A DNA stretch of 40,074 nucleotides from Patescibacteria group bacterium (GTDB taxonomy: Bacteria; Patescibacteriota; Microgenomatia; Levybacterales; UBA12049): contig JBBTZX010000034.1 in the NCBI GenBank assembly GCA_038061125.1, positions 1 through 40,074 on the forward strand. The letters are read 5' to 3'. Shown here one piece after another: positions 1,437 to 26,375 of the stretch. The notes beneath the pieces were generated by a model. That model was not told the origin of the DNA, searched no databases, and worked only from the letters and a program-made list of their open reading frames with translations. A program made the position numbers and the translations under genes. Within the stretch, counting starts at the first letter, position 1. Each line of letters opens with the position of its first letter.

Positions 1437-2386
1437 TTCTTAATTCTTAAAATAGTCCATCTAATTTTATCCAATAGCTTATATATTTCATAAAAGAATG
1501 AATTAATAACTAAATCAAAACTTCCAATAAATTCAACAAGTTGTCCTCCATAGCCTTCTTTAAACCGATGAAATCCATACCATGGGTCATTTTTATCAGG
1601 ATTAGATCCGAGCGCTCCCCACATATCAAATTTTTTCAAACCAAGTTTTTTGCCAAATTTAATAGCTTCCCACATCATGAGATTTGATGCCATAGTTTCT
1701 CTATAAAGACTTGATGAGGCGCCATAAGGATAATAAAGGGTATCTTTATAAACAAAGAGAATCCAAGCAGTTAATATTTGATTTTTATATTTTGCTAACA
1801 AAAGCCGTGCAGTCAATTTATCGACATTTGAATTTTGAGTTTTTAATGTGTTCCACATCAGCTTATGATAATTTTCTGTGTGTGCATAGAAATTTTGACG
1901 TTTAGTTGTTTCTTTTGTAAGTTTTAGATATTCCTCAAAAGCTTTATCCGAATTATCTTCAATTATTTCAACATTATGTTTTTGAGCTATTTTAATGTTG
2001 TATCGAGTCTTCGGATGCATTGATTTTAATAAATCTTCTTCACTTTTTGTTAAATCCAAAATAAATGTATATTTGGTGAAAAGAGGATGAAAAGAAGGCC
2101 TAATGCCTAAATTTGCCATTTGCCATTTACCATTTGCCATTTGCTTTACGTTTGGTTCAAGTTGGATAAAAATACATTTCTCTTTTTTACCAATCTCACG
2201 AAGTTTAACTACCATTTCTTTTGTTGGCATAGGGCTTTTCGGCAGATATCCTACAGTCCAAGGAGTATGCGGAATTTTATGGATTGTTAGCTGAAATCCC
2301 TTTTCTCTGATAACTTTTAGTCCTGTTTTTTGCCTAAATTCGCCCCATTCTAAAGATTGCATGGGATGAATTGAATTATTGTTCAT
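1433..2386 (-). CDS. FemAB-family peptidoglycan interpeptide-bridge aminoacyltransferase
   Basis: 317 aa. N-terminal QSLEWGEFRQKTG and a C-terminal GFHRFKEGYGG-type segment are typical of the FemABX / lipid II aminoacyltransferase family. Overlaps pcrA stop and start by 4 nt. Confidence 0.7.
   Translation of the reverse strand: MNNNSIHPMQSLEWGEFRQKTGLKVIREKGFQLTIHKIPHTPWTVGYLPKSPMPTKEMVVKLREIGKKEKCIFIQLEPNVKQMANGKWQMANLGIRPSFHPLFTKYTFILDLTKSEEDLLKSMHPKTRYNIKIAQKHNVEIIEDNSDKAFEEYLKLTKETTKRQNFYAHTENYHKLMWNTLKTQNSNVDKLTARLLLAKYKNQILTAWILFVYKDTLYYPYGASSSLYRETMASNLMMWEAIKFGKKLGLKKFDMWGALGSNPDKNDPWYGFHRFKEGYGGQLVEFIGSFDLVINSFFYEIYKLLDKIRWTILRIKK
2112..2144. repeat. Tandem heptanucleotide repeat TTTGCCA x4.7 (one unit TTTACCA) inside the FemAB-like CDS
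   Basis: Read directly: tttgcca tttgcca tttacca tttgcca tttgc. Encodes QMANGKWQMAN on the minus strand. Confidence 0.9.
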
Positions 2387-4254
2387 AGATATTCCGGTAA
2401 ATTTCTATCTAAATTTACAGCATGCAAATTATTCGAAATTACTTCTTCCGGTAGCTCCAAAAGAAATCTGGATATTGTATTGGACGTTCGCTGTCCGAAG
2501 AAAATTCTTCGGGAGGCAAAAGTTAAAAAGAGTTTTTCTTTTGCTCTTGTCATTCCTACATAGCATAAACGTCTTTCTTCCTCCAATTCATTTTTGTCCA
2601 TAAGGCTTCTCTGGTGGGGGAATAATCCTTCTTCCATTCCAACCATAAAAACTATGGGAAACTCAAGTCCTTTAGCCGCATGAAGAGTCATTAAAGTTAT
2701 CGCATCTTTTCTATCGCTATCTTTGGCAGGTTTGTCCGGCATGTATTCTTGTTCAACTAAGGCAATATTTTCCAGAAATTCCGTAAGATTTGGAAAGGCA
2801 ACTGCAACCGAACGAAGTTCTTTAATATTTTCCAGCCTTTCTTTATCTTCCTCCTCGCTTTTATCATATAACGAAAGATAATCAGTTGCTTGTAAGATTT
2901 TATCCAATACCTCAAGAGTTGTAATATTTATTGGATCTTTTATTTTTTCTACCAACTCCAGAAATTTATTCATTCTTCCTTTCCCCAATTTGCCAATCCT
3001 TCTATACGAAACCATATCTTTTGGATTTTCCAAAAATCTAACAAACGCTAGGATATCTTTAATTTCCTTCCTTTCGTAAAACCTAGTACCGCCAACCAGA
3101 ACATAGGGTATGCCTTGATGTAATAATATTTCTTCAATGACTCTGGATTGTGCATTAGTTCTATAAAAAATTGCTACGTCGGTAAATTTCCAGTCAGAGG
3201 TTGGTCCGCCTTTGGCGGAAAAATTTGAGTTTCGAGATTTAAGATTAGCAATCTCTCTAACTATAAATTCTGTTTCATCTTGTTCGTTTCTTGCTTCGTA
3301 GATTATAATATTTTCTCCTTTTGGATTTTTGGTCCAAAGAGATAGGACAGGATGAGTAGTATTATGTGAGATAACCGAAGAAGCAGCATCCAAAATTTTC
3401 TGCGTAGAGCGATAATTCTGTGAAAGAGCAAATGTTTTTGCACCCTTAAAGTCCTCTTTGAATTTCGTAAGATTGGTAAAATCCGCACCCCGCCAACTGT
3501 AAATGCTTTGGGAAAAATCGCCAACAACGCAAATATTTTTCCATTTAAGAGAAAGGGTCTTGGTTAAATAGTATTGTGCATGATTGGTATCCTGATATTC
3601 ATCAACCATAATATATTGAAAGCGATTCTGATATTTCTTAAGGATTTCTTGTTCTTTGTTGAAAAGCTCTATGGTTTTTAGTAAAAGATCATCGAAATCC
3701 AAAGCGTTGTTTTCCGAGAGCTGTTCTTGATATTTAATGTAAATTCTGGCTGCTTGTTCCTGAAAATGTCCTCTTGCATATCTAGGATATTCAAGCGAGG
3801 TTATCAGCTCATTTTTGGCCTGGGAAATTGCGCCTAATATAGAAGAAGGTTTATAATCTTTGGTTGGAATATTTAGTTTTAGCATAGCTTCTTTTATTGC
3901 ATCCAGCTGATCGGTAGTATCGTATATGGCAAATTTTTCCGAAAGGCCGATGTGTTTTCCTTCTATTCTAAGAATTCTGGCACATAAAGAATGAAACGTT
4001 GCGATTAATGGTTTTCCTTTTGTGATAAACTTTCCAATTCTTTCTTTCATTTCATTTGCCGCTTTATTGGTAAACGTTACCATTAATATATTGGACGGAT
4101 CGATACCTTTCTCCTGTATTAAATACACAACTTTATAAGTTAAAACCCTGGTTTTGCCGCTGCCTGCACCCGCAAGTATGACCATCGGACCGTCTGTATT
4201 TATTACTGCTTGTTTTTGTTCCAAATTTAAGTCCTTGAGAAAGGCATCAATCAT
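2383..4254 (-). CDS. pcrA: ATP-dependent DNA helicase PcrA/UvrD (SF1)
   Basis: 623 aa. Walker A AGAGSGKTRVLT, DEYQDT motif II, TLHAAKGLEF and CYVGMTRAKEKL helicase motifs. Confidence 0.9.
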   Translation of the reverse strand: MIDAFLKDLNLEQKQAVINTDGPMVILAGAGSGKTRVLTYKVVYLIQEKGIDPSNILMVTFTNKAANEMKERIGKFITKGKPLIATFHSLCARILRIEGKHIGLSEKFAIYDTTDQLDAIKEAMLKLNIPTKDYKPSSILGAISQAKNELITSLEYPRYARGHFQEQAARIYIKYQEQLSENNALDFDDLLLKTIELFNKEQEILKKYQNRFQYIMVDEYQDTNHAQYYLTKTLSLKWKNICVVGDFSQSIYSWRGADFTNLTKFKEDFKGAKTFALSQNYRSTQKILDAASSVISHNTTHPVLSLWTKNPKGENIIIYEARNEQDETEFIVREIANLKSRNSNFSAKGGPTSDWKFTDVAIFYRTNAQSRVIEEILLHQGIPYVLVGGTRFYERKEIKDILAFVRFLENPKDMVSYRRIGKLGKGRMNKFLELVEKIKDPINITTLEVLDKILQATDYLSLYDKSEEEDKERLENIKELRSVAVAFPNLTEFLENIALVEQEYMPDKPAKDSDRKDAITLMTLHAAKGLEFPIVFMVGMEEGLFPHQRSLMDKNELEEERRLCYVGMTRAKEKLFLTFASRRIFFGQRTSNTISRFLLELPEEVISNNLHAVNLDRNLPEYL

Positions 4255-4260
4255 AAGTAT
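4225..4260 (+). repeat. Left copy of a perfect 36-bp direct repeat (ATTTAAGTCCTTGAGAAAGGCATCAATCATAAGTAT)
   Basis: Identical to 6808-6843. Covers pcrA codons 1-10 plus 6 nt upstream. Confidence 0.95.
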
Positions 4261-4324
4261 TATTATAAGTAAACTACTTTATTAAGTTGAAGGTGTCTTG
4301 TAATTGTAACAGTAGCTTAAGCTC

Positions 4325-4353
4325 TTGACAACCACCTTATAGTGTGATAATAT
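4325..4353 (+). promoter_or_regulatory. Sigma70-like promoter of the DGR target gene
   Basis: TTGACA (4325-4330), 17-nt spacer, TAATAT (4348-4353) preceded by TG at 4345-4346 (extended -10). The in-frame ATG at 4362 follows 8 nt later, so the mRNA is possibly leaderless. Confidence 0.5.
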
Positions 4354-4361
4354 ACGTCATC

Positions 4362-4973
4362 ATGGTGCAGGCTTTAGAAAATTTATCCATACATTATAGA
4401 ATAAAAGGAGATGCTACGAGGGCAGCTCTATATTCAAAGCTAACGGCAGAAGAGCAAGCTAGAGGAACACCTAGAATCCTTTCAGAAGTTCCAGTATTTC
4501 TTCTAGGTATACCGGCTGATGAGGGTCTGACTAACAAGGAAATGGAAGCATTGCTAGATTCTGCAAGAGAAAAAGGTCTTAAGGTCAGCGATTGGGCAAG
4601 AAGAATAATTGGAAGAGCTGATGTTTCCAAAGACCCTCAAGCATCAGAATTGATGGCATTGGATAATCTTACTATGGGACTTCCTGAATACCCAACAACA
4701 ACGCAAGTATGGGAAAAATCGGCTGAATTTGGAAACAAAATTTCCGCGGAACGATTCGTCCGCTTTGCAATAGAGGCTGCGGAAGGAAAGATCCCTGTAG
4801 AAATAGGAAAACCGTTTGTTGCGATTATGGAGCCAGTGGCTGGCACGAGTGGCGGTCCGGGAGTTCTCTGTCTTGGACGCTCCGGGGGTGGATTGTGGTT
4901 GGATGGCCGTTATGCTGATTCTGACGATCAGTGGGGTCCGGTGTTTCGGTTTGTTGTTTCTTCTCGCAAGTAA
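4362..4973 (+). CDS. DGR target (variable) protein with C-terminal variable region
   Basis: The ORF track starts at GTG 4344. I prefer the in-frame ATG 4362 because of the promoter position. The last ~45 codons are the VR. The gene is visibly more GC-rich than its neighbours. No signal peptide or TM helix is visible. Confidence 0.8.
   Translation: MVQALENLSIHYRIKGDATRAALYSKLTAEEQARGTPRILSEVPVFLLGIPADEGLTNKEMEALLDSAREKGLKVSDWARRIIGRADVSKDPQASELMALDNLTMGLPEYPTTTQVWEKSAEFGNKISAERFVRFAIEAAEGKIPVEIGKPFVAIMEPVAGTSGGPGVLCLGRSGGGLWLDGRYADSDDQWGPVFRFVVSSRK
4836..4972 (+). repeat. DGR variable repeat (VR)
   Basis: Gap-free alignment to 5299-5435 (offset 463). All mismatches fall where the TR copy has A. 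Confidence 0.9.
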
Positions 4974-5298
4974 TTAGTTCTTAAATCTTTTGACACTTCG
5001 TTTTTTTTGTTCCTTAGTCTCTTTGATTCTGTTATACTTTGAAATTTCCGTCAAAATTTTTTTGATATACTTTTAATAGAAAGATATTGCTGAACGGCTA
5101 AGGCTTTTCAATATCTCTCCGGCAAATACATATCGGGAATACAAATGGTTAAGGCTTTCTGTAGAGGATTTGTATTTTGTCAAATTAAAAAAGAAAAACT
5201 TGGTGTAATGCGCTGGCTGATTTAAATATCACAAGTAAAATACAGCTTAATCTCTTGTTATTACTAGATAAGCAGTGAATTAGATGGCGTGTTATACG

Positions 5299-5435
5299 AA
5301 AACTGACACGAATGGCAATCCGAAAGTTCTCTATCTTGAACGCAACAAGGATGGATTGTGGTTGAATAGCAATTATGCTAATTCTGACAATCAGTGGAAT
5401 CCGGAAATTCGGTTTGTTGTTTCTTCTCGAAAGAA
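5299..5435 (+). ncRNA. DGR template repeat (TR)
   Basis: The adenine-rich copy of the VR. It has six AAY codons in the target frame at diversified sites. The 5' edge is ambiguous (5299-5303). The A-free 3' block CGGTTTGTTGTTTCTTCTCG is identical in both copies. Confidence 0.9.
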
Positions 5436-5442
5436 GTTCTTT

Positions 5443-5468
5443 CCGCAACTTAACCGTTGCGGTTTTTT
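5443..5468 (+). terminator. Hairpin plus T6 immediately 3' of TR (intrinsic terminator and/or DGR RNA structural element)
   Basis: CCGCAAC (5443-5449) pairs with GTTGCGG (5456-5462), 6-nt loop, then TTTTTT (5463-5468). The avd stop codon lies in the loop on the opposite strand. Confidence 0.6.
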
Positions 5469-5797
5469 ATTGATTCTATCTCTAAACTTTTTCTCCAGCC
5501 GCCAAACATTTTGCCGGTTTCATCAAGCTTTATTGCTATCTCTTCGTATTGCTTATGGGAGATAAGTTTGGCTTCCCAGGTTAAAGAAATCAAGAACTTA
5601 AGAATATCCAGATTAAAGATGCAGTTAGAAATTTTCTCAAGTTTTTTATCCTTACTGCTAAAATAGGCAGTGTAGGTAATTTCCAAAAGATCGAGAAATT
5701 TATTTTCAATTCTGACGCCAAGTGTATAGCGGCTGGTTTTTGGAATATGCGGAACAATAGTAATCCAAATCAAATATCCCTGTTTAATTCTGCTCAA
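5450..5797 (-). CDS. avd: Avd-like four-helix-bundle protein (DGR accessory variability determinant; 23S rRNA IVS protein family)
   Basis: 115 aa, TTG start. PKTSRYTLGVRIE and the C-terminal LDETGKMFGGWRKS match the family pattern (xGKMLxGW). Located between TR and RT but on the opposite strand. Confidence 0.75.
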   Translation of the reverse strand: MSRIKQGYLIWITIVPHIPKTSRYTLGVRIENKFLDLLEITYTAYFSSKDKKLEKISNCIFNLDILKFLISLTWEAKLISHKQYEEIAIKLDETGKMFGGWRKSLEIESIKNRNG

Positions 5798-5812
5798 AAT
5801 AGAACTGCTTTC

Positions 5813-5828
5813 AGAGAGAGAGAGAGAG
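5813..5828. repeat. (AG)8 dinucleotide microsatellite in the divergent avd/RT control region
   Basis: Read directly: agagagagagagagag. Confidence 0.95.
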
Positions 5829-5868
5829 TAAAAGACCGTTTCATATTAAATATAATGATATCATTTCT

Positions 5869-6813
5869 TTGGAAAATTTACTTATTTCATGGCAGGAATT
5901 TTTGAGAGGCAAAAGAGAAAGAAAAGATGTTGCCGAATTTTCACTGCGTTTAATGGACAATATCTTTTTTCTTCGCTTTGAACTATTAAATAAAACATAT
6001 AAACATGGGTTTTATCAGGCTTTTAAAATTAATGATCCGAAACCTCGAGACATCCATAAAGCAAATGTAAGAGATAGATTTCTTCATCACGCAATTTGCA
6101 GAGTTTTATATCCGTATTTTGATAAGAAATTTATCTTTGATTCATATTCCTGCAGATTAGAAAAAGGAACCCATCGAGCAATAAATCGTTTTAGAGATTT
6201 TGCCAGAAAAGCTTCCTGCAATAATGCTCGGACAGCGCGGGTATTGAAATGCGATATTAAAAAATTCTTTGCCAATATTAACCACCGGATTTTACTCAAT
6301 ATTTTAGAGAAAGATATAGAGGATGCTGACGTAATGTGGCTTTTAAAGGAAATTATCGAAAGCTTTTGTACTAAAGGTAAAAAGAGAGTTGGTCTTCCGC
6401 TTGGCAATTTAACCAGTCAATTATTTATTAATATCTATATGAATGAATTTGACCAATTCGTAAAGCGAACACTGAAAGTTAAGTATTATATCCGCTATGC
6501 TGATGATTTTGTGATTTTCCATGAAAGCAAAACATATTTAGAAAAACTTATTCCCAAAATATCGCAATATCTGGAAAAGGAACTAAAACTTTCTCTTCAT
6601 CCCAAAAAAGTCTTTATTAAAACACCTTCTTCAGGTATAGAATTTTTAGGCTGGGTCCATTTTCCTCAGCATCGAATATTAAGAACCGCAACGAAGCGAA
6701 GAATGTTTAGAAATTTAAAGCAAAATAATTCAAAAGAAATACTTGTTTCATATTTAGGTCTACTAAAACACGGAAATACTTATAAATTAGTAAAGAAAAT
6801 ATTAAGGATTTAA
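5869..6813 (+). CDS. DGR-type reverse transcriptase
   Basis: 314 aa, TTG start. KPRDIHKANVRDRFLHHA (RT motifs 1/2), LKCDIKKFF (motif A), LPLGNLTSQLFINIYM ([ILV]GxxxSQ DGR signature), IRYADDFVIF (YxDD). The stop codon lies inside the right 36-bp repeat. Confidence 0.9.
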   Translation: MENLLISWQEFLRGKRERKDVAEFSLRLMDNIFFLRFELLNKTYKHGFYQAFKINDPKPRDIHKANVRDRFLHHAICRVLYPYFDKKFIFDSYSCRLEKGTHRAINRFRDFARKASCNNARTARVLKCDIKKFFANINHRILLNILEKDIEDADVMWLLKEIIESFCTKGKKRVGLPLGNLTSQLFINIYMNEFDQFVKRTLKVKYYIRYADDFVIFHESKTYLEKLIPKISQYLEKELKLSLHPKKVFIKTPSSGIEFLGWVHFPQHRILRTATKRRMFRNLKQNNSKEILVSYLGLLKHGNTYKLVKKILRI

Positions 6814-6843
6814 GTCCTTGAGAAAGGCATCAATCATAAGTAT
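6808..6843 (+). repeat. Right copy of the perfect 36-bp direct repeat
   Basis: Identical to 4225-4260. Carries a decoy pcrA start on the minus strand (MIDAFLKDLN then a stop). Confidence 0.95.
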
Positions 6844-6873
6844 AATAAAAAAGCTGCATTATAATTCTAACAT

Positions 6874-7536
6874 ATGAAAAAGCTTTTTATTGTAGGTAAT
6901 TGGAAGTCAAATAAAACAGCTCTCGAAGCCAAAAACTGGCTTGACGCGTTTAAGGTAAACGATTTAGGAATTACAGACAAAGAAATTATAATTTGTCCTC
7001 CATTTACCCTTTTGTCTTCGATTTCGTTAGAAGTTAGAAGTCAGAAGTTAGAAGCTAGGATTGGCGCGCAGGATATTTCCCCTTTTGATGAGGGTGCATA
7101 TACAGGAGAAATTAATGGGAAGCAAATTAAAGAGTTTGGGGATTATGTTTTGATTGGGCATTCCGAAAGGCGGCAATATCTTAAGGAAGATGACGAAATC
7201 TTAAATAGGAAAGTGATAATGGCTATTAAGTATAATTTGATACCAATTTTTTGCGTACAAGAACGGAATACTGTTATTCCTTCAGGCGTTAGAATAGTAG
7301 CTTACGAACCAATATGGGCAATTGGCACTGGTAATCCGGATACTCCGGATAATGCTGAACAAGTTGCAACAGCGATAAAATCTTCCAATAAAGAAATTAC
7401 ACATATTCTTTATGGCGGAAGCATAACGTCAGCGAATACAAATAGTTTTACAAAAATGTCCCAGATCGATGGGGTTTTGGTAGGAGGCGCAAGTCTAGAT
7501 TCCACGGAATTTTTAAAGATCATTAAAAATGCATAA
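6874..7536 (+). CDS. tpiA: Triosephosphate isomerase (short form)
   Basis: VGNWKSNKT, IGHSERR, AYEPIWAIGTG, LYGGS motifs. TATAAT at 6860-6865 lies 8 nt before the ATG. Confidence 0.9.
   Translation: MKKLFIVGNWKSNKTALEAKNWLDAFKVNDLGITDKEIIICPPFTLLSSISLEVRSQKLEARIGAQDISPFDEGAYTGEINGKQIKEFGDYVLIGHSERRQYLKEDDEILNRKVIMAIKYNLIPIFCVQERNTVIPSGVRIVAYEPIWAIGTGNPDTPDNAEQVATAIKSSNKEITHILYGGSITSANTNSFTKMSQIDGVLVGGASLDSTEFLKIIKNA
7026..7060. repeat. Tandem heptanucleotide repeat GTTAGAA x5 (units 3 and 5 diverged) inside tpiA
   Basis: gttagaa gttagaa gtcagaa gttagaa gctagga. Encodes LEVRSQKLEAR. Confidence 0.9.
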
Positions 7537-8629: not shown

Positions 8630-10726
8630 CTAATATTTGAATTTATAGATTGTTACTCCTTTGTTTAGATATATTATACTGCCGAGTTGTTTAAATTTAT
8701 CCTCATTTAAATACAAATATTTTTTTCTTTCCAGCTCACCTACATAGACATATGAAATATTGTATTTCTTCAGAAGTTCTTTTGTAACGAGTAAATCTTT
8801 GGATTCGTAAAGGGCTGATACATCATTGATTCTGGGAGCGGGGATATCGTAAGTTCCGCGCCATAACCACTCATGTACTGTCCAACCCAAAACTGTCGGA
8901 AGACCGGTATTCGCAGATATTCTGGCATAATCTGTATAAGAATCTCCTTGCGCTTCCAAAATTACAGGTTGTCCTTTGATATTCTTGTTTATCCATTGAA
9001 TTGCCAAATAGTCATTTGGATAAAGAGAATTTAAATAAGATGTACCGTTAAGCCCTTTGTAGGAATTTAACCCGCCATAATAAGAGTTAATTGCAAAATA
9101 AGGATAAATCCCTACGAGAAATAACCCAATAATGCCAATTCCAAATACTACCAATTTGAAATAAGAAAGTCTAAGATTTGAAAATATTTTAAAAATTATA
9201 TAACCTGAAGAAATAGATAGCATGATGAAAGATTCGTAAACAAGTTTAAACATAGTATTCGCTCTATAATGAGCAGGATAAATGTCCTTTAAATACACAA
9301 ATTCAGGAACAACGATAAGAATCGTAGATAAGATTATTAGAATTCCAATGAAGATATCACTAGCGTTTGGTTTATAACGCTTAGCGTTTAGTTTTAGAAA
9401 AATAATAAATGCTATAACCCAGAAATAAAAAAATCCGTAAAGAATTGCCAGCTGCCAAAGAGGAGATTTTTGACAATGGTTTGGTTCAAAAAGAAAAGGA
9501 CCAAGATGTCCGATATCCGTCAAAAACTTTGGTGCGCAAAGAATTCCGATATTGGAAGCAAAGGGAGTAAAATTTTTAGAAAAAGGTAAAGAGAAAAGAA
9601 ATGCGCCTCCCATAAGAAACAGAAGGTTCATATATATTCCGGATTTAGGCTTAATAAAAAGAATAATAAGAAAGACAAGCAAGAAATAGATAATTGTATC
9701 CCAAACATTTGTCATATACATTATTGCCAATAAAAAGCTTATTAAAAGCAGAGTTGGGATTTTGAAGTTTTTAGAATAGAAAGATGAGAGAAGGATGGCA
9801 ATTGTAAGCAAAACGAAAGGGATATCCAATACATGTCCATGTAAATCCGAAACAACGAAAGAATAAATTGGGAATTCATGGATAGTATTGAAAATAAAAC
9901 GCGTTGCATTGGGGTACCAGTATGCATTTGGGAAATTTTGCGGAGAAAATATAAGCTGCCAAAAGGGAACAGGCGAGCCATTTACATAAGGAGTGAAAAA
10001 TGAATATATAGAGTGGATATTTCCTCCCATAGCTACAAGAAGCGAAGTCAGTAGTCCTCCAAGAAGAATTTTTAATTTTAAATTTTTAATTTTAAATTGA
10101 CTAAGAAGATTTAACCCGATAGAAAAACTGGCGGTAAAGGTTAAAGAAAATAAAGTAGCGATCATAAGGTTATAAGTTATGAAAGAGGGGATTTGAGATA
10201 TTTTCGTCAAAAGAGCAGTCACTAAATGGCCAAAATAATAGTAGTTTATAGGAAATGGTGTAAACCACATATCGCGCGGAGGAAAATAATCAGCCCGCAG
10301 AATGGAATTTACGAATCCAAAATCCATAAATTTTTCCAGCCCATGGATATCAGGCTGAAATCCTCTTACATAAGACCAAAAGAGGAGAGCGGCCAAAAAG
10401 ATTAGCTCTTCGAGAAAATAGATCCCCAAATTTTTCTTAAAATTTAATTTCGATAGAAACTTAGTTTTTTTAGCAACGAATAGATTAACAATTAATAAAA
10501 TTATACAAACAAGAATAATAGTAGGCATTTGGAATGGAAGGATTTTTAATATCCCAAGCAAAAAAACTATATAACTTAAAATTGCAATTCCCAGAATTCT
10601 TGAAAAAATATATCCTCTGTCAAAAAAATTAGAAAAAATGCTGGTAGTCAGCGGCAAAAAAACAATCCCAATAGTAAGAAACATTACCCACCATTTAAAA
10701 ACGTAAGATAAATCAGATAGAAACAT
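8630..10726 (-). CDS. Large polytopic membrane protein, DUF2298 / chlor_Arch_YYY-type (GT-C-like)
   Basis: 698 aa, more than 15 hydrophobic segments, INYYYFGH motif, soluble C-terminal domain. Confidence 0.6.
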   Translation of the reverse strand: MFLSDLSYVFKWWVMFLTIGIVFLPLTTSIFSNFFDRGYIFSRILGIAILSYIVFLLGILKILPFQMPTIILVCIILLIVNLFVAKKTKFLSKLNFKKNLGIYFLEELIFLAALLFWSYVRGFQPDIHGLEKFMDFGFVNSILRADYFPPRDMWFTPFPINYYYFGHLVTALLTKISQIPSFITYNLMIATLFSLTFTASFSIGLNLLSQFKIKNLKLKILLGGLLTSLLVAMGGNIHSIYSFFTPYVNGSPVPFWQLIFSPQNFPNAYWYPNATRFIFNTIHEFPIYSFVVSDLHGHVLDIPFVLLTIAILLSSFYSKNFKIPTLLLISFLLAIMYMTNVWDTIIYFLLVFLIILFIKPKSGIYMNLLFLMGGAFLFSLPFSKNFTPFASNIGILCAPKFLTDIGHLGPFLFEPNHCQKSPLWQLAILYGFFYFWVIAFIIFLKLNAKRYKPNASDIFIGILIILSTILIVVPEFVYLKDIYPAHYRANTMFKLVYESFIMLSISSGYIIFKIFSNLRLSYFKLVVFGIGIIGLFLVGIYPYFAINSYYGGLNSYKGLNGTSYLNSLYPNDYLAIQWINKNIKGQPVILEAQGDSYTDYARISANTGLPTVLGWTVHEWLWRGTYDIPAPRINDVSALYESKDLLVTKELLKKYNISYVYVGELERKKYLYLNEDKFKQLGSIIYLNKGVTIYKFKY
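10068..10098. repeat. 14-nt tandem repeat ATTTTTAATTTTAA x2.2 (two diverged 7-mers per unit) inside the YYY-protein CDS
   Basis: Read directly at 10068-10081, 10082-10095 and a partial third unit. Low-complexity AT sequence. Confidence 0.7.
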
Positions 10727-22200: not shown

Positions 22201-22971
22201 ATGAATTCTTTAAAAGAAGTAAAAAATTTAAGAAAAAGAAATAGAAGCTCGAGATATCCATCTCTTTCGCTAGAATATGCGGTAAAGGTTATTGAAGAAG
22301 CTAGGAAATTTGGAAAAAACGTGACGAGCGCGAATTTGGGCGGTACAGGCGCAAAGAGCGGAGCTTACATACGTAAGAAAGCTTCATTAGGGTATTATGG
22401 TTTATTATCTGGAACAGGCGACAATCTTCAAATAACCGATCTGGCAGATAAAATTGTTTATGCAAAAAGCGAGGAAGAAAAAGCAAACTCACTGAGACAA
22501 GCGTTTCTTTCCCCCGATCTTTTTTCTACGATATGCCAAAAGATTGAAAAAAATACTCCTATTAATCTCGAAGTATTAGGGAATGTTTTTATTAGAGATT
22601 ATGGAATTCAGCCTTCTGCGAAAAAGGCTTTACTCCAAAATTTCGTGAGTTCTGGGATCTTTGCCAATGTGATTAAGTATAGCGGTGAAAACAAAAGAGA
22701 TATTATTTTTTCAGACAATGATAAAGGTAAGGAGGAAAAGACCTCTGTTATAATGTCGCAGCAAGACAATGAAGCTTCTCGGGGAATATCGGGAAATTAT
22801 ACTATTGATCTTCCATCCGGAATAATAATTTCATTTCCAGCAGATATGAAATTTAATGTTAGTGTGGGAGAATTTGCACAACCGATTAGGGATCTGGAAA
22901 AAATAGCATCAAGTTTAAAAGAAAAAAAACAAAAACATGGGGAGCATATCCAAGCGGACGAAGGTAAGTAG
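22201..22971 (+). CDS. Hypothetical protein, possibly with an N-terminal winged-helix-like domain
   Basis: 256-aa ORF. No motif I can name with confidence. First gene of the accessory islet. Confidence 0.35.
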   Translation: MNSLKEVKNLRKRNRSSRYPSLSLEYAVKVIEEARKFGKNVTSANLGGTGAKSGAYIRKKASLGYYGLLSGTGDNLQITDLADKIVYAKSEEEKANSLRQAFLSPDLFSTICQKIEKNTPINLEVLGNVFIRDYGIQPSAKKALLQNFVSSGIFANVIKYSGENKRDIIFSDNDKGKEEKTSVIMSQQDNEASRGISGNYTIDLPSGIIISFPADMKFNVSVGEFAQPIRDLEKIASSLKEKKQKHGEHIQADEGK

Positions 22972-23016
22972 CTTCCAAAACTACTACACATACGGATATA
23001 GCATATTTTTATGTGT

Positions 23017-23047
23017 TCCATCGCAAGTTCAAATCTTGCTCTCTCCA
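23017..23047 (+). pseudogene. tRNA 3'-end relic (T-arm plus acceptor 3' strand), not an intact tRNA
   Basis: GCAAG-TTCAAAT-CTTGC (perfect 5-bp T-stem with a canonical T-loop), then TCTCTCC plus the discriminator A. No complementary GGAGAGA 5' strand within 90 nt upstream. Confidence 0.5.
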
Positions 23048-23067
23048 GTACTAAACGACTTAAGATA

Positions 23068-23097
23068 TTGACCGATTGGCACGAAATGTGTTAAAAT
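23068..23097 (+). promoter_or_regulatory. Orphan promoter upstream of a short terminated transcript
   Basis: TTGACC (23068-23073), 18-nt spacer, TGtTAAAAT extended -10 (23089-23097). Confidence 0.4.
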
Positions 23098-23103
23098 ACT
23101 TAA

Positions 23104-23150
23104 ACACATAAGAATATGCTAGCAAAAACACCTCCTCTGGGAGGTTTTTT
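23104..23150 (+). ncRNA. Candidate ~45-nt small RNA (promoter to terminator, no ORF)
   Basis: The predicted TSS is about 23104. The transcript would end at the hairpin CCTCC-tctg-GGAGG plus T6. No coding potential. Confidence 0.25.
23131..23150. terminator. Intrinsic terminator, probably bidirectional (also serves the convergent methyltransferase gene)
   Basis: CCTCC (23131-23135) pairs with GGAGG (23140-23144), followed by TTTTTT. On the minus strand the hairpin is followed by tgttttt. Confidence 0.6.
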
Positions 23151-23207
23151 GTTGAGAGATTCCTGTCGTATATTCGTAATACGAAAAGAGTAGTTGGATA
23201 TAAACCG

Positions 23208-24713
23208 TCAGTCAAATATAGATAAGTTATCTTCGTTAATTTTTACCCTGTCTGCTTTCTTTCTGTAATCTAACTGGAGGGGGATTGAAGGTTTTTTCGC
23301 ATTTTCCAGAATATCTTTAATTGTTAATATTTGAATTTTGGGAATGCCTGTTTTATAAAATCCAGATTGTATTGCTTCTTCGGTCATGTTTCTTGTAGGT
23401 TCTTCTAGGGTAAGGAAAATTCCTACTAGAGCCTTCTCTTTTTCTACAACAGCTTTTAATTCCCTAATATCTTTTGCTTGAACCTTTCCGCTTTTTACTT
23501 GCACTATGGCTTTTTGATATTCTTTGGGTTTATCTGAATCCATAAAATAAATATATCCATCTATTCCGGTATCTGCTCCTTTTTTCTTGTCTGCCCAAGG
23601 TCTGGCGTTTACTAGGGATAAAGCCCAATACTGAAAATCATATCTATCTTGTCTTTGAGCAAGTTCTATTGCTCCTTGTAAGTCTTCGGGTTCTCCGATA
23701 ACATCGTAATTTTTTCTTTGTTCAAGTCCATATTCATTTTTTAATCGGTACTTCATTAAGTTAATTGCTAAATGAGTAATATCTATGCCAAGCCATGTAA
23801 GATGATAGTCTTCTTTCTGTTTTAAATATTCACAAGCGGATAGGGTAGTGCCGCATCCACAAAAAGGATCTAAAACAATTCCGTTTTTTGGACAGGATGC
23901 TTTTATTATTCTTTCAAGTAATTTACGAGGTTTTTGCGTGTTATATCCAAGTCTCTCGGTTTTGTCTCTTTCTGGGATTTGGGGTACTATCCAAACATCA
24001 TTTGGATTTCTTGGTTCGTCTAGGTAATATTTATAAACTTTTCCTGCTTTCCTTACTTCCCTATACCTTCTTCCGTCTGGATCGGTTCCAAAATATCCGC
24101 CAAAAGTGCCTTCGTTTTGTTCTCTTAAATCTCCAACAGCTTTCCCGTCATAAAAATAGCTTTCGGTCTTGTTATAAACAAGAAGAATATCGTGTCTTTT
24201 GCTAAAAGCAGTTCTGCCTATACTTCCGCTATTCCTAACCCAGACAATCTCATTCATAAAGTTTTTTACTCCAAAAATTGTATCCATAACTACTTTTAAG
24301 TAATGAGAAGCTGTCGGATCGCAGTGAAGATATAGAGTGCCCGTAGATTTCAAAACTCTATGCAACTCTAGTAATCTAATTGTCATCATGGTTAAGTAAG
24401 CCATTACATCGTTTTGCTTAATAAACTTTCTAAAAGCTAAAATCATGTCTACAGCCTCCGAAGGAGCATTGTCAACAATTTCTTTGAATGCTCGTTCCGA
24501 TTCTTCTGTCCAATGCCAAGTGTCATCAAATGCTTCAATTTGGGCTTTTGATTTGTCTCCAGTTAGTTCTTCGAATAGGACATTATAAGAAGCTTTAGAA
24601 TTGAAAGGCGGATCTAAGTAAATTAAGTCAATAGAATTATCAGCGATATGGTTTTTAAGTATCCGAAGGTTATCTCCAAAAAATAGGGTAGACCTGTTAA
24701 TGCCCATACTCAT
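23208..24713 (-). CDS. Beta-class N6-adenine/N4-cytosine DNA methyltransferase fused to a C-terminal Mrr-like (PD-(D/E)xK) nuclease domain
   Basis: 501 aa. DPPF (motif IV) precedes DPFCGCGTT (motif I), which is the beta permutation. The C-terminal ~140 aa carry GADTGIDGYIYF ... VQVKSGK, matching the Mrr_cat pattern (GDGGIDG ... QCK). Confidence 0.8.
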   Translation of the reverse strand: MSMGINRSTLFFGDNLRILKNHIADNSIDLIYLDPPFNSKASYNVLFEELTGDKSKAQIEAFDDTWHWTEESERAFKEIVDNAPSEAVDMILAFRKFIKQNDVMAYLTMMTIRLLELHRVLKSTGTLYLHCDPTASHYLKVVMDTIFGVKNFMNEIVWVRNSGSIGRTAFSKRHDILLVYNKTESYFYDGKAVGDLREQNEGTFGGYFGTDPDGRRYREVRKAGKVYKYYLDEPRNPNDVWIVPQIPERDKTERLGYNTQKPRKLLERIIKASCPKNGIVLDPFCGCGTTLSACEYLKQKEDYHLTWLGIDITHLAINLMKYRLKNEYGLEQRKNYDVIGEPEDLQGAIELAQRQDRYDFQYWALSLVNARPWADKKKGADTGIDGYIYFMDSDKPKEYQKAIVQVKSGKVQAKDIRELKAVVEKEKALVGIFLTLEEPTRNMTEEAIQSGFYKTGIPKIQILTIKDILENAKKPSIPLQLDYRKKADRVKINEDNLSIFD

Positions 24714-24720
24714 TTTATGC

Positions 24721-24736
24721 TACTTATAGTCCCAAT
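24721..24736. promoter_or_regulatory. C-box-like site 1 (TACTTATAGTCCCAAT)
   Basis: One mismatch to the GACTnnnAGTC C-box core. Shares AGTCCCAAT with site 2. Lies 8 nt upstream of the methyltransferase start. Confidence 0.3.
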
Positions 24737-24776
24737 ATAGCACATTTTAATAAATAAATGCTACAAGGAGAAGCTG

Positions 24777-24792
24777 GTCTGTCAGTCCCAAT
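24777..24792. promoter_or_regulatory. C-box-like site 2 (GTCTGTCAGTCCCAAT)
   Basis: One mismatch to GACTnnnAGTC. About 23 nt upstream of the HTH gene ATG at 24815. Confidence 0.3.
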
Positions 24793-24814
24793 TAGCTTAA
24801 TCTTTGGGGTAGTT

Positions 24815-25036
24815 ATGGATGTTGTATCGGTTATCCATAAAAGGTTAGGGCAGAGAATTTATCAGTTAAGGAAAGAAAGGGAAATGACTCAAGAAGATTT
24901 AGCTTTTAAGGTTGGTGTTGATAGAAGCTATATGGGTTTTGTAGAAAGGGGAGAGAAAAATGCTACCGTTAAAATTCTTGCCAAAATAGCATTTGCTCTT
25001 AAAGTTTCTCTATCCGAACTTTTCCGCTCGGTTTAG
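24815..25036 (+). CDS. XRE-family HTH regulator, controller (C) protein-like
   Basis: Start moved to ATG 24815 (MDVVSVIHKRLGQRIYQLRKEREMTQEDLAFKVGVDRSYMGFVERGEKN). 73 aa, divergent from the methyltransferase. Size and position are typical of R-M controller proteins. Confidence 0.7.
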   Translation: MDVVSVIHKRLGQRIYQLRKEREMTQEDLAFKVGVDRSYMGFVERGEKNATVKILAKIAFALKVSLSELFRSV

Positions 25037-25059
25037 ATAATTTATTCTGCTTCACGTTT

Positions 25060-25076
25060 TTCTGCTATAATCTTCA
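25060..25076 (+). promoter_or_regulatory. Promoter module TTCTGCTATAATCTTCA, copy A (upstream of 25111)
   Basis: TGCTATAAT is a consensus extended -10. A GAAGG Shine-Dalgarno sequence (25094-25098) lies 12 nt before the ATG at 25111. Confidence 0.55.
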
Positions 25077-25110
25077 CAAATCTATTGTATTCTTCTTCAC
25101 GAAGGCAATT

Positions 25111-25848
25111 ATGAAACCTACATTAAATAGTTTACTTAAGGATCAAAATAGAAATATTAAAGTTTTTCTAAAGAGTCTACCTACTGAAAAGAAAATTATA
25201 AATAGGATAATAAGCTTATATTTTAATTTTCATAAATCCTTCAATAAGAAGATCCCAAGGGAGAGAATACCTGAGCTTCATCTTTTTTGGATCACTCTTA
25301 GAGGATTTTTTATAAGTATAGAATTAATGTTACAAGGGCATGTATCGGAATCGTATTCAATTGTTAGTACATCAGTGGAAGCTGCTGGTTATGTATTTAA
25401 AATCTGCAAAAATCCTTCAAAATCAATAGTTTGGATAAAGAAAAAAGATTATAGCTACAGAGAATTTAAATCAAAATTTGGTGAACCTTTTCCTCGGGAG
25501 TTCTTTAAGCGATTTCCAGAACTATCTCAATTATATGATATTTACAATTTAACTAGAGATTATGGTATTCATTCAAACTTAGAAAAGACAATTTTCTTCA
25601 AGAAAAAGGATGAAAAGAATTCAAATGAATACGCTTTTAAATTCAGCGAGTTAGACAATTTTCCATTAGTGCAATCAAACCTAAATTATTTAATTCACGC
25701 AAATATAAAAATATTAAAGATATTTAAAATTTGTTTTGAAGATATGTTAGACAAAAAATGGAAGTCAAAATTAACACACGTAGAAAAAACCTTCGACAAA
25801 CATAGATCCTCAATCCCAAGTATGCTGAATGCGTTAGGTTATAAATAA
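25111..25848 (+). CDS. Hypothetical helical protein with an Rx4H motif (HEPN-like candidate, or a novel restriction/effector subunit)
   Basis: 245 aa. LTRDYGIHSN contains R-D-x3-H, matching the HEPN R[NDHQ]xxxH signature. It occupies the position of the R gene in a C-R operon. No PD-(D/E)xK motif is recognisable by eye. Confidence 0.3.
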   Translation: MKPTLNSLLKDQNRNIKVFLKSLPTEKKIINRIISLYFNFHKSFNKKIPRERIPELHLFWITLRGFFISIELMLQGHVSESYSIVSTSVEAAGYVFKICKNPSKSIVWIKKKDYSYREFKSKFGEPFPREFFKRFPELSQLYDIYNLTRDYGIHSNLEKTIFFKKKDEKNSNEYAFKFSELDNFPLVQSNLNYLIHANIKILKIFKICFEDMLDKKWKSKLTHVEKTFDKHRSSIPSMLNALGYK

Positions 25849-25855
25849 TTAATGC

Positions 25856-25872
25856 TTCTGCTATAATTTTCA
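25856..25872 (+). promoter_or_regulatory. Promoter module TTCTGCTATAATTTTCA, copy B (orphan)
   Basis: 16 of 17 nt identical to copies A and C. An ATG at 25876 follows the -10 box by 8 nt. Confidence 0.45.
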
Positions 25873-25875
25873 GAG

Positions 25876-25968
25876 ATGAGTTTGACCTTTGACTCCGCCA
25901 GGTACCAGTCGGTACCTGACTTTACTCAGGGTAAATCAGTGGGGATATTTGGAATAAAACTTCAGTAA
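25876..25968 (+). other. 30-codon sORF or short transcript containing a GC-rich perfect hairpin
   Basis: MSLTFDSARYQSVPDFTQGKSVGIFGIKLQ. CAGGTACC (25899-25906) pairs with GGTACCTG (25911-25918). The transcript runs head-on toward the 3' end of the PIN gene. Confidence 0.2.
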
Positions 25969-25973
25969 AACTT

Positions 25974-26375
25974 TTAGTCTTTCAATAGTTTTAAAAAATC
26001 TTTTGGTGAGAGGATTTTCGTTTTATTATATTGCTTGAGTTTTAGCACGAGTTTGTCTCCGCTTATTAAATAATCTGCCTGAGCTTCACCAGCAAGCTCC
26101 AAAAGAAAATTGTCAGTTGGGTCTTTGCATATAAGAATCTTTTTTTTAGGAATATATTTTTCTGTTTTTGTTTCTAACGCTTCTTCGACAGTTTGAAGAG
26201 TATATATAGAAATCAAAAATTTTCCTTGTAACTTATTAAGAATTTCTGCTTTTAGTTCTGGAGATAAGCAAAATATATATTTTTTGTTAAGCCATGCTTC
26301 GATTACTTTTTGAGGATTTCCGCCAAACAGAACGCCGGAAATAAATACATTCGTATCTACAACGATCTTATGCAT
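25974..26375 (-). CDS. PIN-domain toxin (type II TA system)
   Basis: 133 aa. An N-terminal VVDTNVFISG acidic motif and a later ISGD. 8-nt overlap with the upstream antitoxin gene. Confidence 0.75.
   Translation of the reverse strand: MHKIVVDTNVFISGVLFGGNPQKVIEAWLNKKYIFCLSPELKAEILNKLQGKFLISIYTLQTVEEALETKTEKYIPKKKILICKDPTDNFLLELAGEAQADYLISGDKLVLKLKQYNKTKILSPKDFLKLLKD

Follow-up and report, generated by a model that had tools for sequence, protein, structure and literature searches.

A diversity-generating retroelement inserted at the pcrA-tpiA boundary of a Patescibacteria genome and bracketed by a duplicated gene start

Diversity-generating retroelements (DGRs) are unusually common in the bacteria of the candidate phyla radiation (CPR), or Patescibacteria. 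The DGR considered here lies between pcrA, which encodes a UvrD-type helicase, and tpiA, which encodes triosephosphate isomerase, in contig JBBTZX010000034.1 of a groundwater Patescibacteria genome belonging to the Levybacterales (assembly GCA_038061125.1); the window is the whole stretch of this contig that was analyzed, namely positions 1 to 40,074 of the forward strand. Like the DGRs carried by prophages, plasmids, and integrative and conjugative elements (ICEs), it forms a cohesive horizontal unit composed of a target gene, a template repeat (TR), avd, and a reverse transcriptase (RT) gene. In the Bacteroides ICEs inserted at tRNA-Lys (bioRxiv 10.1101/2024.11.15.621889), the vehicle is large and the repeats belong to the ICE, whereas here the bare DGR makes up the whole insert. 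The mobility of DGRs targeting bacterial proteins has been described as "relatively unexplored" (bioRxiv 10.1101/2024.11.15.621889). In the literature on DGR target-site duplications and on Patescibacteria islands with direct repeats, no earlier description of a bare DGR inserted between flanking duplications was found.

SXT/R391 in prfC and the dusA-specific islands integrate into a gene at its 5' end, which they restore. The present locus resembles them in that a housekeeping gene has received the insertion at its 5' end, between direct repeats, and the insert supplies a substitute upstream region with a putative promoter, while the old 5' end is left as a decoy. These islands are tens of kilobases long and have a tyrosine integrase and a short defined core, whereas here the insert measures 2.5 kb and no recombinase is present. 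As regards the features by which integrase islands are recognized, the repeats and a single-copy empty site were both found, an element-encoded tyrosine or serine recombinase was not, and the same element with its repeats was not found at the same site in other genomes, since the homologous DGR occurring there (contig L095, see below) has no repeat after its RT gene. The likeness to cis-mobilizable elements (CIMEs) and other non-autonomous elements flanked by attachment (att) sites lies in the cargo held between direct repeats without recombination genes, and in the tandem arrays observed at two other DGR loci (L081 and L067); as a difference, no helper element or integrase was identified, and the repeats vary in length and have no common motif.

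Homology-facilitated illegitimate recombination and insertion-duplication (Campbell-type) recombination resemble the events suggested here in that one join is homologous and the other illegitimate, the homology segment is duplicated, no enzyme of the element is needed, and the imported flank is homologous but diverged; a diverged copy of the target flank does adjoin the block of identity (4261-4312 versus 6844-6873). The described cases differ in that they usually delete recipient DNA and concern laboratory systems, not a route by which DGRs spread. As in transposon insertions and those of the LINE (long interspersed nuclear element) type, a direct duplication of target sequence flanks the insert, but 36 bp is far longer than the duplications made by transposases, which are short and fixed, and the insert contains no transposase, no terminal A-tract, no endonuclease domain, and no terminal inverted repeat (none among 17 inverted pairs), so that it belongs neither to the transposons nor to the insertion sequences. 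Nor does it fit a target-primed retrotransposon, as it holds promoter-like sites, an antisense gene, and homology to the host spacer. Simon and Zimmerly (2008; PMC2602772) did not find long target-site duplications around bacterial RTs.

The filled site and its empty counterparts

The 36-mer ATTTAAGTCCTTGAGAAAGGCATCAATCATAAGTAT, hereafter R, occurs exactly twice in the window (R-left and R-right, Table 1), even when up to three mismatches are allowed, and a match was obtained in 0 of 100 shuffles. The bases beside the two copies are unlike (a versus g on the left side, t versus a on the right), and the two perfect direct repeats with differing flanks claimed by the original prediction were confirmed. 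R-left is contiguous with pcrA and does hold its true start, that is, codons 1-10 plus 6 nt upstream, with the start codon at 4254-4252 on the minus strand. The decoy start expected in R-right is also present, although it runs one codon further than was claimed, reading MIDAFLKDLNP instead of MIDAFLKDLN before the stop; the stop codon of the RT gene (TAA, 6811-6813) falls, as stated, inside the same copy. That the repeats bound a cassette consisting only of a DGR is correct for the genes, all of which belong to the DGR, but not for the sequence at 4261-4312, which is a diverged homologue of the native spacer between pcrA and tpiA.

Both junctions are present in L004 (ENA ERZ1292645), an independent SPAdes-type contig from Hainich well H14 with 99.96% identity across 6980 nt, and the right junction, running from the RT gene through R into tpiA, is present in a third assembly, L092 (ERZ1292644); these two supporting assemblies were built with k-mers longer than 36. 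The Logan contigs, for which k=31, end precisely at the repeat (L005 corresponds to window 4231-6837), and since they break there, they cannot separate the integrated form from other arrangements. One contig, L002, which begins at the first base of R, was taken as a hint of an empty allele in its sample; this idea was dropped, as L149 shows that the cassette does occur in that sample, at low and fragmented coverage. A 26-mer from R searched against the metagenomes returned only one further contig, L092, from the same population, and no new alleles.

An exact-sequence look-up of PcrA returned no record, and the closest relatives were found through TpiA. In L007 (GCA_041643115.1; TpiA 86% identical), pcrA and tpiA are divergent, there is no DGR, and the 36-mer is present in one exact copy, which is the empty-site allele that had been predicted; L008 (a member of the Levybacteria, TpiA 76%) and L009 (73%) also carry divergent pcrA and tpiA genes without a DGR. 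The homology between the window and L007 stops at 4260 and restarts at 6807, and the sequence following R-right (6844-6873), said in the original prediction to look like the ancestral intergenic region, does match the L007 spacer. The L008 empty site (8837-8929) is a 93-nt spacer with an inserted hairpin-forming segment, TGACCCTTCGACGTTGCTCAGGGTCA, an additional small indel located at this hot spot. Across the group, R does not stand out by its conservation, since L008 differs from it at about 9 of the 36 positions.

The history of the two flanks was analyzed by counting the sites at which the window has the base of either L007 or L008 but not of both. These sites favor L008 over L007 by 120 to 107 in pcrA and by 105 to 55 in lytR, whereas L007 is favored by 17 to 0 in R plus the spacer and by 84 to 28 in tpiA, and the heterogeneity across segments is significant (chi-square p = 2e-10). 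The L007-like block extends from about 4156 to about 7600 and begins about 70 nt to the left of R-left. Since both flanks of the DGR lie in one L007-like block, they were once contiguous and the DGR entered a site of the empty type: it is a real insertion into a formerly empty pcrA-tpiA site. The affinity is with L007 in the first 100 nt or so of pcrA, in R, in the spacer, and in tpiA, and with L008 in lytR. This mosaic of similarity along the locus suggests that homologous exchange around it is frequent among these Levybacteria lineages.

R is the segment in which the coding start of pcrA and the putative divergent promoter of tpiA overlap. In the native arrangement, as in L007, the two start codons are 36 nt apart, and the -35 element of the tpiA promoter-like site, together with its spacer, lies within pcrA codons 1-7 (the decoy codons in R-right). 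Because the start codon and the presumed promoter overlap in R, a simple insertion on either side of it would destroy one of the two genes, and only an insertion which duplicates the segment could leave both pcrA and tpiA working. The left end of the insert carries two promoter-like sites back to back, one directed toward the target gene and the other toward pcrA. The spacers of L009 and L095 have the motif facing pcrA in the corresponding position, and a TTGACA-containing counterpart of the target promoter was seen by eye upstream of the targets of two homologous DGRs located elsewhere (L093 and L094).

The first 52 nt or so of what was called the cassette can be aligned with the native spacer as far as the tpiA ATG position. 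This left spacer contains the 12-mer CTTGTAATTGTA, which occurs exactly in the L009 and L095 spacers (shuffle p = 0.0005 for L009, with one other equal match in the 40-kb window when both strands were scanned), where the window's native spacer reads CATTATAATTCTA. The divergence of the two adjoining segments is uneven, since the copies of R agree at 36 of 36 positions and the copies of the spacer at 21 of 30 with an indel of 22 nt; the fact that the one directly adjoins the other does not fit a single duplication followed by neutral decay. The simplest reading of this pattern is that the left spacer copy came with the DGR from another lineage. No R-like or spacer-like sequence was found upstream of the homologous DGRs at other loci (L093 and L094), which have only the target promoter in common with the window.

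Homologous and bracketed retroelements at other loci

L095, a Logan contig of 3.8 kb whose lineage is distant (PcrA N-terminus 63% identical), also has at the pcrA-tpiA locus a DGR homologous to that of the window. The order in L095 is pcrA, a LAGLIDADG gene (PF14528), 46 nt, an R-like decoy, a motif-bearing spacer with the conserved target promoter, the target gene (53% amino acid identity), the TR, avd, the RT gene (69%), a spacer of 72 nt, and tpiA. The two DGRs show 71.7% nucleotide identity over 2302 nt, and the R-like decoy, which encodes MNYDFLKDLN, is 82-87% identical to R. A decayed R was sought by eye after the L095 RT gene, and the best candidate matched at about 14 of 30 positions, which is not significant. 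A DGR at this locus without the flanking repeat, the case which the original prediction had set against itself, does therefore exist; and because no repeat follows the RT gene in L095, this contig shows that a DGR can be present at the pcrA-tpiA locus independently of the 36-bp duplication. Homology between the L095 decoy and pcrA ends within 3 nt of the boundary of R-right in the window, which makes pcrA codon 10/11 a recurrent breakpoint.

The LAGLIDADG homing-endonuclease-like gene of L095 (244-1137) lies directly upstream of pcrA and overlaps its start, the former pcrA start being the decoy 46 nt farther on. It occupies the codon 10/11 breakpoint and has its own, very different, pcrA 5' end. 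LAGLIDADG homologues were also observed within about 3 kb of the DGR RT genes in L076 and L065.

Bracketing repeats were screened for at 83 loci, consisting of 80 GTDB loci, two metagenome loci, and the window, 56 of which had enough flanking sequence on both sides. Direct repeats bracketing the RT gene were found at 6 of these 56 loci, versus 3% of the control positions taken within these loci. Among the six, L038 was rejected because the repeat is a multicopy palindrome, and the remaining bracketed loci amount to four independent events, including the window and three other CPR lineages. In L081 (Parcubacteria), the start of leuS and its upstream region are present three times, and one bracketing duplication (81 nt, 90% identical) encloses the DGR, another (35 nt, 97%) an AbiEii cassette; the right boundary of the DGR insert lies 23 nt beyond the 3' end of the RT gene. 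In L067 (Yanofskybacteria), a 144-nt repeat (94% identical), consisting of ychF codons 1-6 and the upstream sequence, brackets the DGR and three further genes, and two more decayed ychF-start decoys lie between further toxin-like cassettes. In L036 and L044 (Uhrbacteria), a 41-nt repeat containing the gyrA stop codon and a terminator hairpin brackets a DGR between gyrA and nusB. Bracketed segments carry additional genes or sequence in L067 and L036.

The duplications around the other CPR DGRs measure 41, 81-105, and 144 nt, and the lengths range from 26 to 144 nt across all loci; they have no common motif, although each covers a functional gene boundary. The fact that the lengths vary argues against a fixed enzymatic stagger. 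Since the AbiEii cassette of L081 has no RT gene and shows the same kind of duplication, such bracketing is not limited to DGRs. Around the relatives of the window DGR located at other loci (L093, L010, and L011), no bracketing repeats were found, and these DGRs have either the target promoter or nothing in common with the window upstream of their genes. Other pairs of repeats 1.5-6 kb apart in the 83 loci proved to be mostly paralogous genes or palindromic intergenic repeats, and were not retained as insertion duplications.

Several of these loci show further features. Upstream of leuS, positions 1-5000 of L081 form an accessory island with HicB/HicA, the DGR, and a two-gene AbiEii cassette, copies of the leuS start being located between the units, and a further partial copy is possible at 620-644. 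Positions 10929-14284 of L067 contain three copies (60-74% identical) of a module of about 130 nt which starts with a sequence resembling the 3' end of an RT gene (CTAAGGATTACCAAATAA) and ends in a ychF-start decoy; these modules separate a TPR/PBECR2-nuclease cassette from a Fic cassette. In L045 (5702-11141), the neighbors of a DGR are a tRNA-Arg gene and a large serine recombinase having Resolvase, Recombinase, and Zn_ribbon_recom domains, and a 92-nt repeat (76% identical) brackets the DGR; this locus has the look of a conventional integrative element with a DGR as cargo and forms the classical contrast to the window. An exact repeat of 42 nt (96-137 and 8804-8845) reaches the end of the 8.8-kb DGR contig L053, and this contig may represent an element that is circular or has terminal redundancy. 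Long intergenic repeats of palindromic structure (40-100 nt), resembling repetitive extragenic palindromes, recur in the CPR loci (Table 1), also inside a ribosomal-protein operon.

Origin of the insertion

We favor the view that the DGR is horizontally acquired cargo and not a self-mobile element, the type of recombination and the direction of transfer described here being those which the sequence comparisons suggest. With evenly balanced confidence, we propose that it recombined in from a related filled allele, by a homologous join on the left and an illegitimate join on the right. The donor would be a related lineage in which a DGR already adjoined pcrA, and the incoming DNA would have carried its own pcrA start and its own version of the spacer, followed by the target gene, the TR, avd, and the RT gene. 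The left join would have occurred in or at the conserved 36-bp segment R, and the right join would fuse the last RT codons with the resident pcrA at the boundary of codons 10 and 11. As this junction would lie to the left of the point where the left-hand homology ends, the resident R would be kept as a second copy. Such an outcome would survive because R holds pcrA codons 1-10 and the putative -35/-10 promoter of tpiA together: R-left would keep pcrA intact, R-right, although a decoy, would keep tpiA expressed, and the imported spacer would provide an outward promoter for pcrA. With recombination of this kind, the block of identity would be accounted for, as would the foreign look of the spacer, the contiguity of the L007-like flanks, the lack of a recombinase, and the arrangement in L095.

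The absence of an integrase or transposase from the cassette, which the original prediction had claimed, was borne out: the cassette encodes only the target, Avd, and the RT. No recombinase was detected among the 27 open reading frames (ORFs) of the window scanned directly with Pfam, no recombinase family occurs in the precomputed Pfam hits of the orthologues of the remaining ORFs, and there is no tRNA gene in the window; nor was a recombinase gene found at the other bracketed loci examined. An insertion restoring a gene end, as had been predicted, agrees with the empty site and the duplication, but the analogy drawn with tRNA islands implies a site-specific integrase, and none was found. A phage vehicle is unsupported, since the scans of viral contigs yielded no close relative of the RT (67% at best) and no copy of the left-end sequence. 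The locus is not evidence for DGRs as autonomous mobile cassettes, and no mobility driven by an integrase, a transposase, or the RT was seen.

Several points weigh against the recombination proposed above. No closer filled allele which might have served as donor was found in the protein collection, the JGI metagenomes, the GTDB genomes, or IMG/VR, and the nearest one, L095, is only 72% identical. The donor would need an identical R next to a spacer about 70% identical, which is demanding in view of the limited conservation of R. A possible microhomology at the right join (ATTT) depends on one comparator RT tail, that of L067, with ATATTAAGGATTT in common. The end of the L095 decoy within 3 nt of the right breakpoint of the window is not predicted by a random illegitimate join, and points to a site-specific break or a recombinase. 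The decoy starts repeated at ychF (L067) and leuS (L081) also look like the repeated use of one site.

These last two observations lend themselves to a different interpretation, which is rather unlikely: R would be a core of the attL/attR type, and a circular molecule consisting of R, the spacer, and the DGR would have integrated at the pcrA start, in the manner of non-autonomous elements of the CIME kind, by means of a site-specific recombinase encoded elsewhere, or else by a single Campbell-type crossover of the host RecA on the 36 bp. As in gene-end-restoring islands, a perfect block does adjoin a diverged substitute of the displaced region, the stop codon of the RT ORF lies inside R, the codon 10/11 breakpoint recurs in L095, and the leuS and ychF decoys resemble a tandem accretion at one site. 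No recombinase gene was found, however, in the cassette, in the 40-kb window, or at the other bracketed loci examined; the repeats at the different loci range from 26 to 144 nt and have no common motif; R read by eye has no convincing dyad symmetry; and L095 has no second R after its RT gene. The minimum length for RecA-dependent exchange is just below 36 bp, so that R barely exceeds it.

It is also unlikely that, in the very compact genomes of the CPR, small accessory cassettes in general (DGRs, toxin-antitoxin and Abi systems, and homing-endonuclease genes) are added serially at a few gene boundaries without any recombinase of their own, the boundary element being duplicated or replaced each time. 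This element may consist of a promoter and a start codon, or of a stop codon and a terminator, and the result may be integron-like arrays with decoy starts. The pcrA codon 10/11 breakpoint, common to the events at this gene, could then be where a LAGLIDADG endonuclease cuts, for instance that of L095, which resembles free-standing homing endonuclease genes in being located at this breakpoint with its own pcrA 5' end; the window differs from such cases in that it has no endonuclease gene and that the cleavage of pcrA is hypothetical.

A duplication made de novo, in which a foreign DGR fragment would have been captured at a staggered break or by template switching, with 36 nt (originally about 66) duplicated, is quite unlikely. 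The clean direct duplication, the existing empty site, and the different duplication lengths at different loci all agree with it, and the overlap of promoter and start codon in R would select for survivors keeping both neighbors. This explanation does not account for the homology between the left end of the insert and the native spacer, nor for the homologous DGR at the same locus in L095. If 66 nt had been duplicated, the 36/36 identity beside 21/30 plus an indel would be unexplained, as about 10 differences would be expected in R if it had diverged like the spacer.

Could the direction be the reverse, the DGR and both copies of R being ancestral and L007, L008, and L009 having lost the DGR by precise deletion between the repeats? 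Recombination of the 36-bp direct repeats would regenerate the exact L007 sequence, L095 shows that a DGR has long been present at the locus, and the divergence of the DGR (72% nucleotide identity) is about the same as that of the tpiA 5' end (72%). This is very unlikely, as two or three independent precise losses would be required, and the three lineages of R (two in the window and one in L007) would have remained identical while their flanks diverged by 10-12%; L095 has no right-hand R, and the L009 and L008 spacers are not of the type which excision from a window-like allele would leave.

Retrotransposition by the RT, that is, target-primed reverse transcription leaving a long and variable target-site duplication, is highly improbable. 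The right boundary abuts the 3' end of the RT gene (23 nt beyond it in L081), bracketing duplications are more frequent at DGR loci than at the control positions (6/56 versus 3%), and no other mobility gene is present. The insert, however, includes promoter-like sites of its own, avd in antisense orientation, and a host-spacer copy, and has neither an A-tract at its end nor an endonuclease domain; the bracketed segments of L067 and L036 contain extra genes or sequence, and the AbiEii cassette shows the same type of duplication without an RT gene. DGR RTs are known for making short cDNAs from the TR. Lastly, a mis-join of the 36-bp repeat in the assembly graph, which the ambiguous k=31 graph with its contigs breaking exactly at the repeat would allow, has a practically negligible probability, as the longer-k assemblies cross the junctions (both in L004, the right one in L092).

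The retroelement, its surroundings, and the meaning of the locus

The insert, of about 2.5 kb, is a complete canonical DGR (Table 1): the RT belongs to the DGR clade, Avd is present, and the variable repeat (VR) is located at the 3' end of the target gene, the stop codon of which coincides with the VR end. The differences between TR and VR are confined to adenines, 26 of the 40 TR adenines being substituted in the VR and every one of the 26 mismatches falling at a TR adenine. The RT is 70-76% identical to many CPR RTs and carries the LGNLTSQ motif, and the loci fetched for homologous CPR RTs contain bAvd genes and TR/VR-like repeats. Taken by itself, the DGR is an ordinary one for the CPR. Between the window, L004, L005, and L149, the VR does not differ at the level of the assembled consensus.

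Truncation of the RT by the insertion was considered and rejected, since its tail after the HGN motif (14 aa) is within the range of 12-35 aa observed at 85 loci. The difference in length between this RT and its homologues is mostly N-terminal, the ORF calls of the latter being extended through a GA tract. Between avd and the RT gene, the window contains an (AG)8 tract (5813-5868). Translation of the frame preceding TTG 5869 gives ...ESKRPFHIKYNDIIS, a sequence matching the extensions present at the N-terminus of numerous homologous RTs (ERERE...H.Y..IIS). Because of this match, the true RT start is probably located upstream of TTG 5869 or is non-canonical. Nucleotide-level conservation of the GA tract is seen across the CPR DGRs, and the tract may have a function. 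The target gene (window 4400-5000) has a G+C content of 43-46%, versus about 30-36% in the rest of the window, and the A-to-G changes in the VR account for only part of this difference.

Table 1. Features of the pcrA-tpiA locus in the window, and palindromic repeats at other loci
Feature	Position	Strand	Remarks
pcrA/uvrD-type helicase gene	2383..4254	-	Pfam UvrD-helicase, 8.7e-92; first 10 codons in R-left
R-left, 36-bp repeat	4225..4260		pcrA codons 1-10 (real) plus 6 nt upstream; contiguous with pcrA
Promoter-like TTGAGA-17-TATTAT, duplicated tpiA promoter, now toward the DGR	4235..4263	+	10/12 matches; putative function
Diverged copy of native pcrA-tpiA spacer	4261..4312		21/30 versus 6844-6873; 22-nt extra segment
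Promoter-like TTGTCA-17-TACAAT, TG extension, outward toward pcrA	4303..4331	-	10/12 matches; putative function
Target-gene promoter-like TTGACA-17-TAATAT	4325..4353	+	Conserved upstream of homologous target in L095
Target gene	4362..4973	+	203 aa from ATG; GTG at 4344 also possible; VR at about 4840-4972
TR	5303..5435 (approximate)	+	26/26 VR differences at TR adenines
avd	5450..5797	-	Pfam bAvd PF22296, 1.7e-16
RT gene	5869..6813	+	Pfam RVT_1 PF00078, 5.2e-23
R-right, 36-bp repeat	6808..6843		Decoy pcrA start MIDAFLKDLNP-stop on the minus strand
Promoter-like TTGAGA-17-TATAAT into tpiA	6818..6846	+	11/12 matches, the region's best; putative function
Native pcrA-tpiA spacer	6844..6873		28/30 identical to L007 empty site
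tpiA (triosephosphate isomerase)	6874..7536	+	Pfam TIM, 6.5e-64
Palindromic repeats	L058 8095-8194, 9784-9883; L067 114-200, 4592-4678; L017 5247-5288, 10806-10847		

Two further observations concern the surroundings of the DGR. The tpiA gene contains an in-frame tandem repeat of 14 nt (GTTAGAAGTTAGAA / GTCAGAAGTTAGAA) at 7026-7053. At 22201-26375 of the window, accessory-type genes (a fusion of a DNA methylase with an Mrr-like restriction domain, two ORFs without a Pfam match, and a PIN toxin) are located amid housekeeping genes; this may be another insertion hot spot, and no flanking repeats were seen there.

At the pcrA-tpiA locus, a bare DGR in a filled site can be compared with the exact empty site of a sister species, the breakpoints being known to the nucleotide, and the question of how such DGRs spread can be tested with the existing reads from the Hainich groundwater. 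The locus also shows how an insertion can be tolerated where a promoter overlaps the start codon of a divergent gene, namely by duplication of the overlapping segment, and this type of duplication may account for decoy gene starts in compact genomes elsewhere. Should a single mechanism underlie both the arrays of decoys and the recurrent breakpoint, it would constitute a new route of cassette acquisition.

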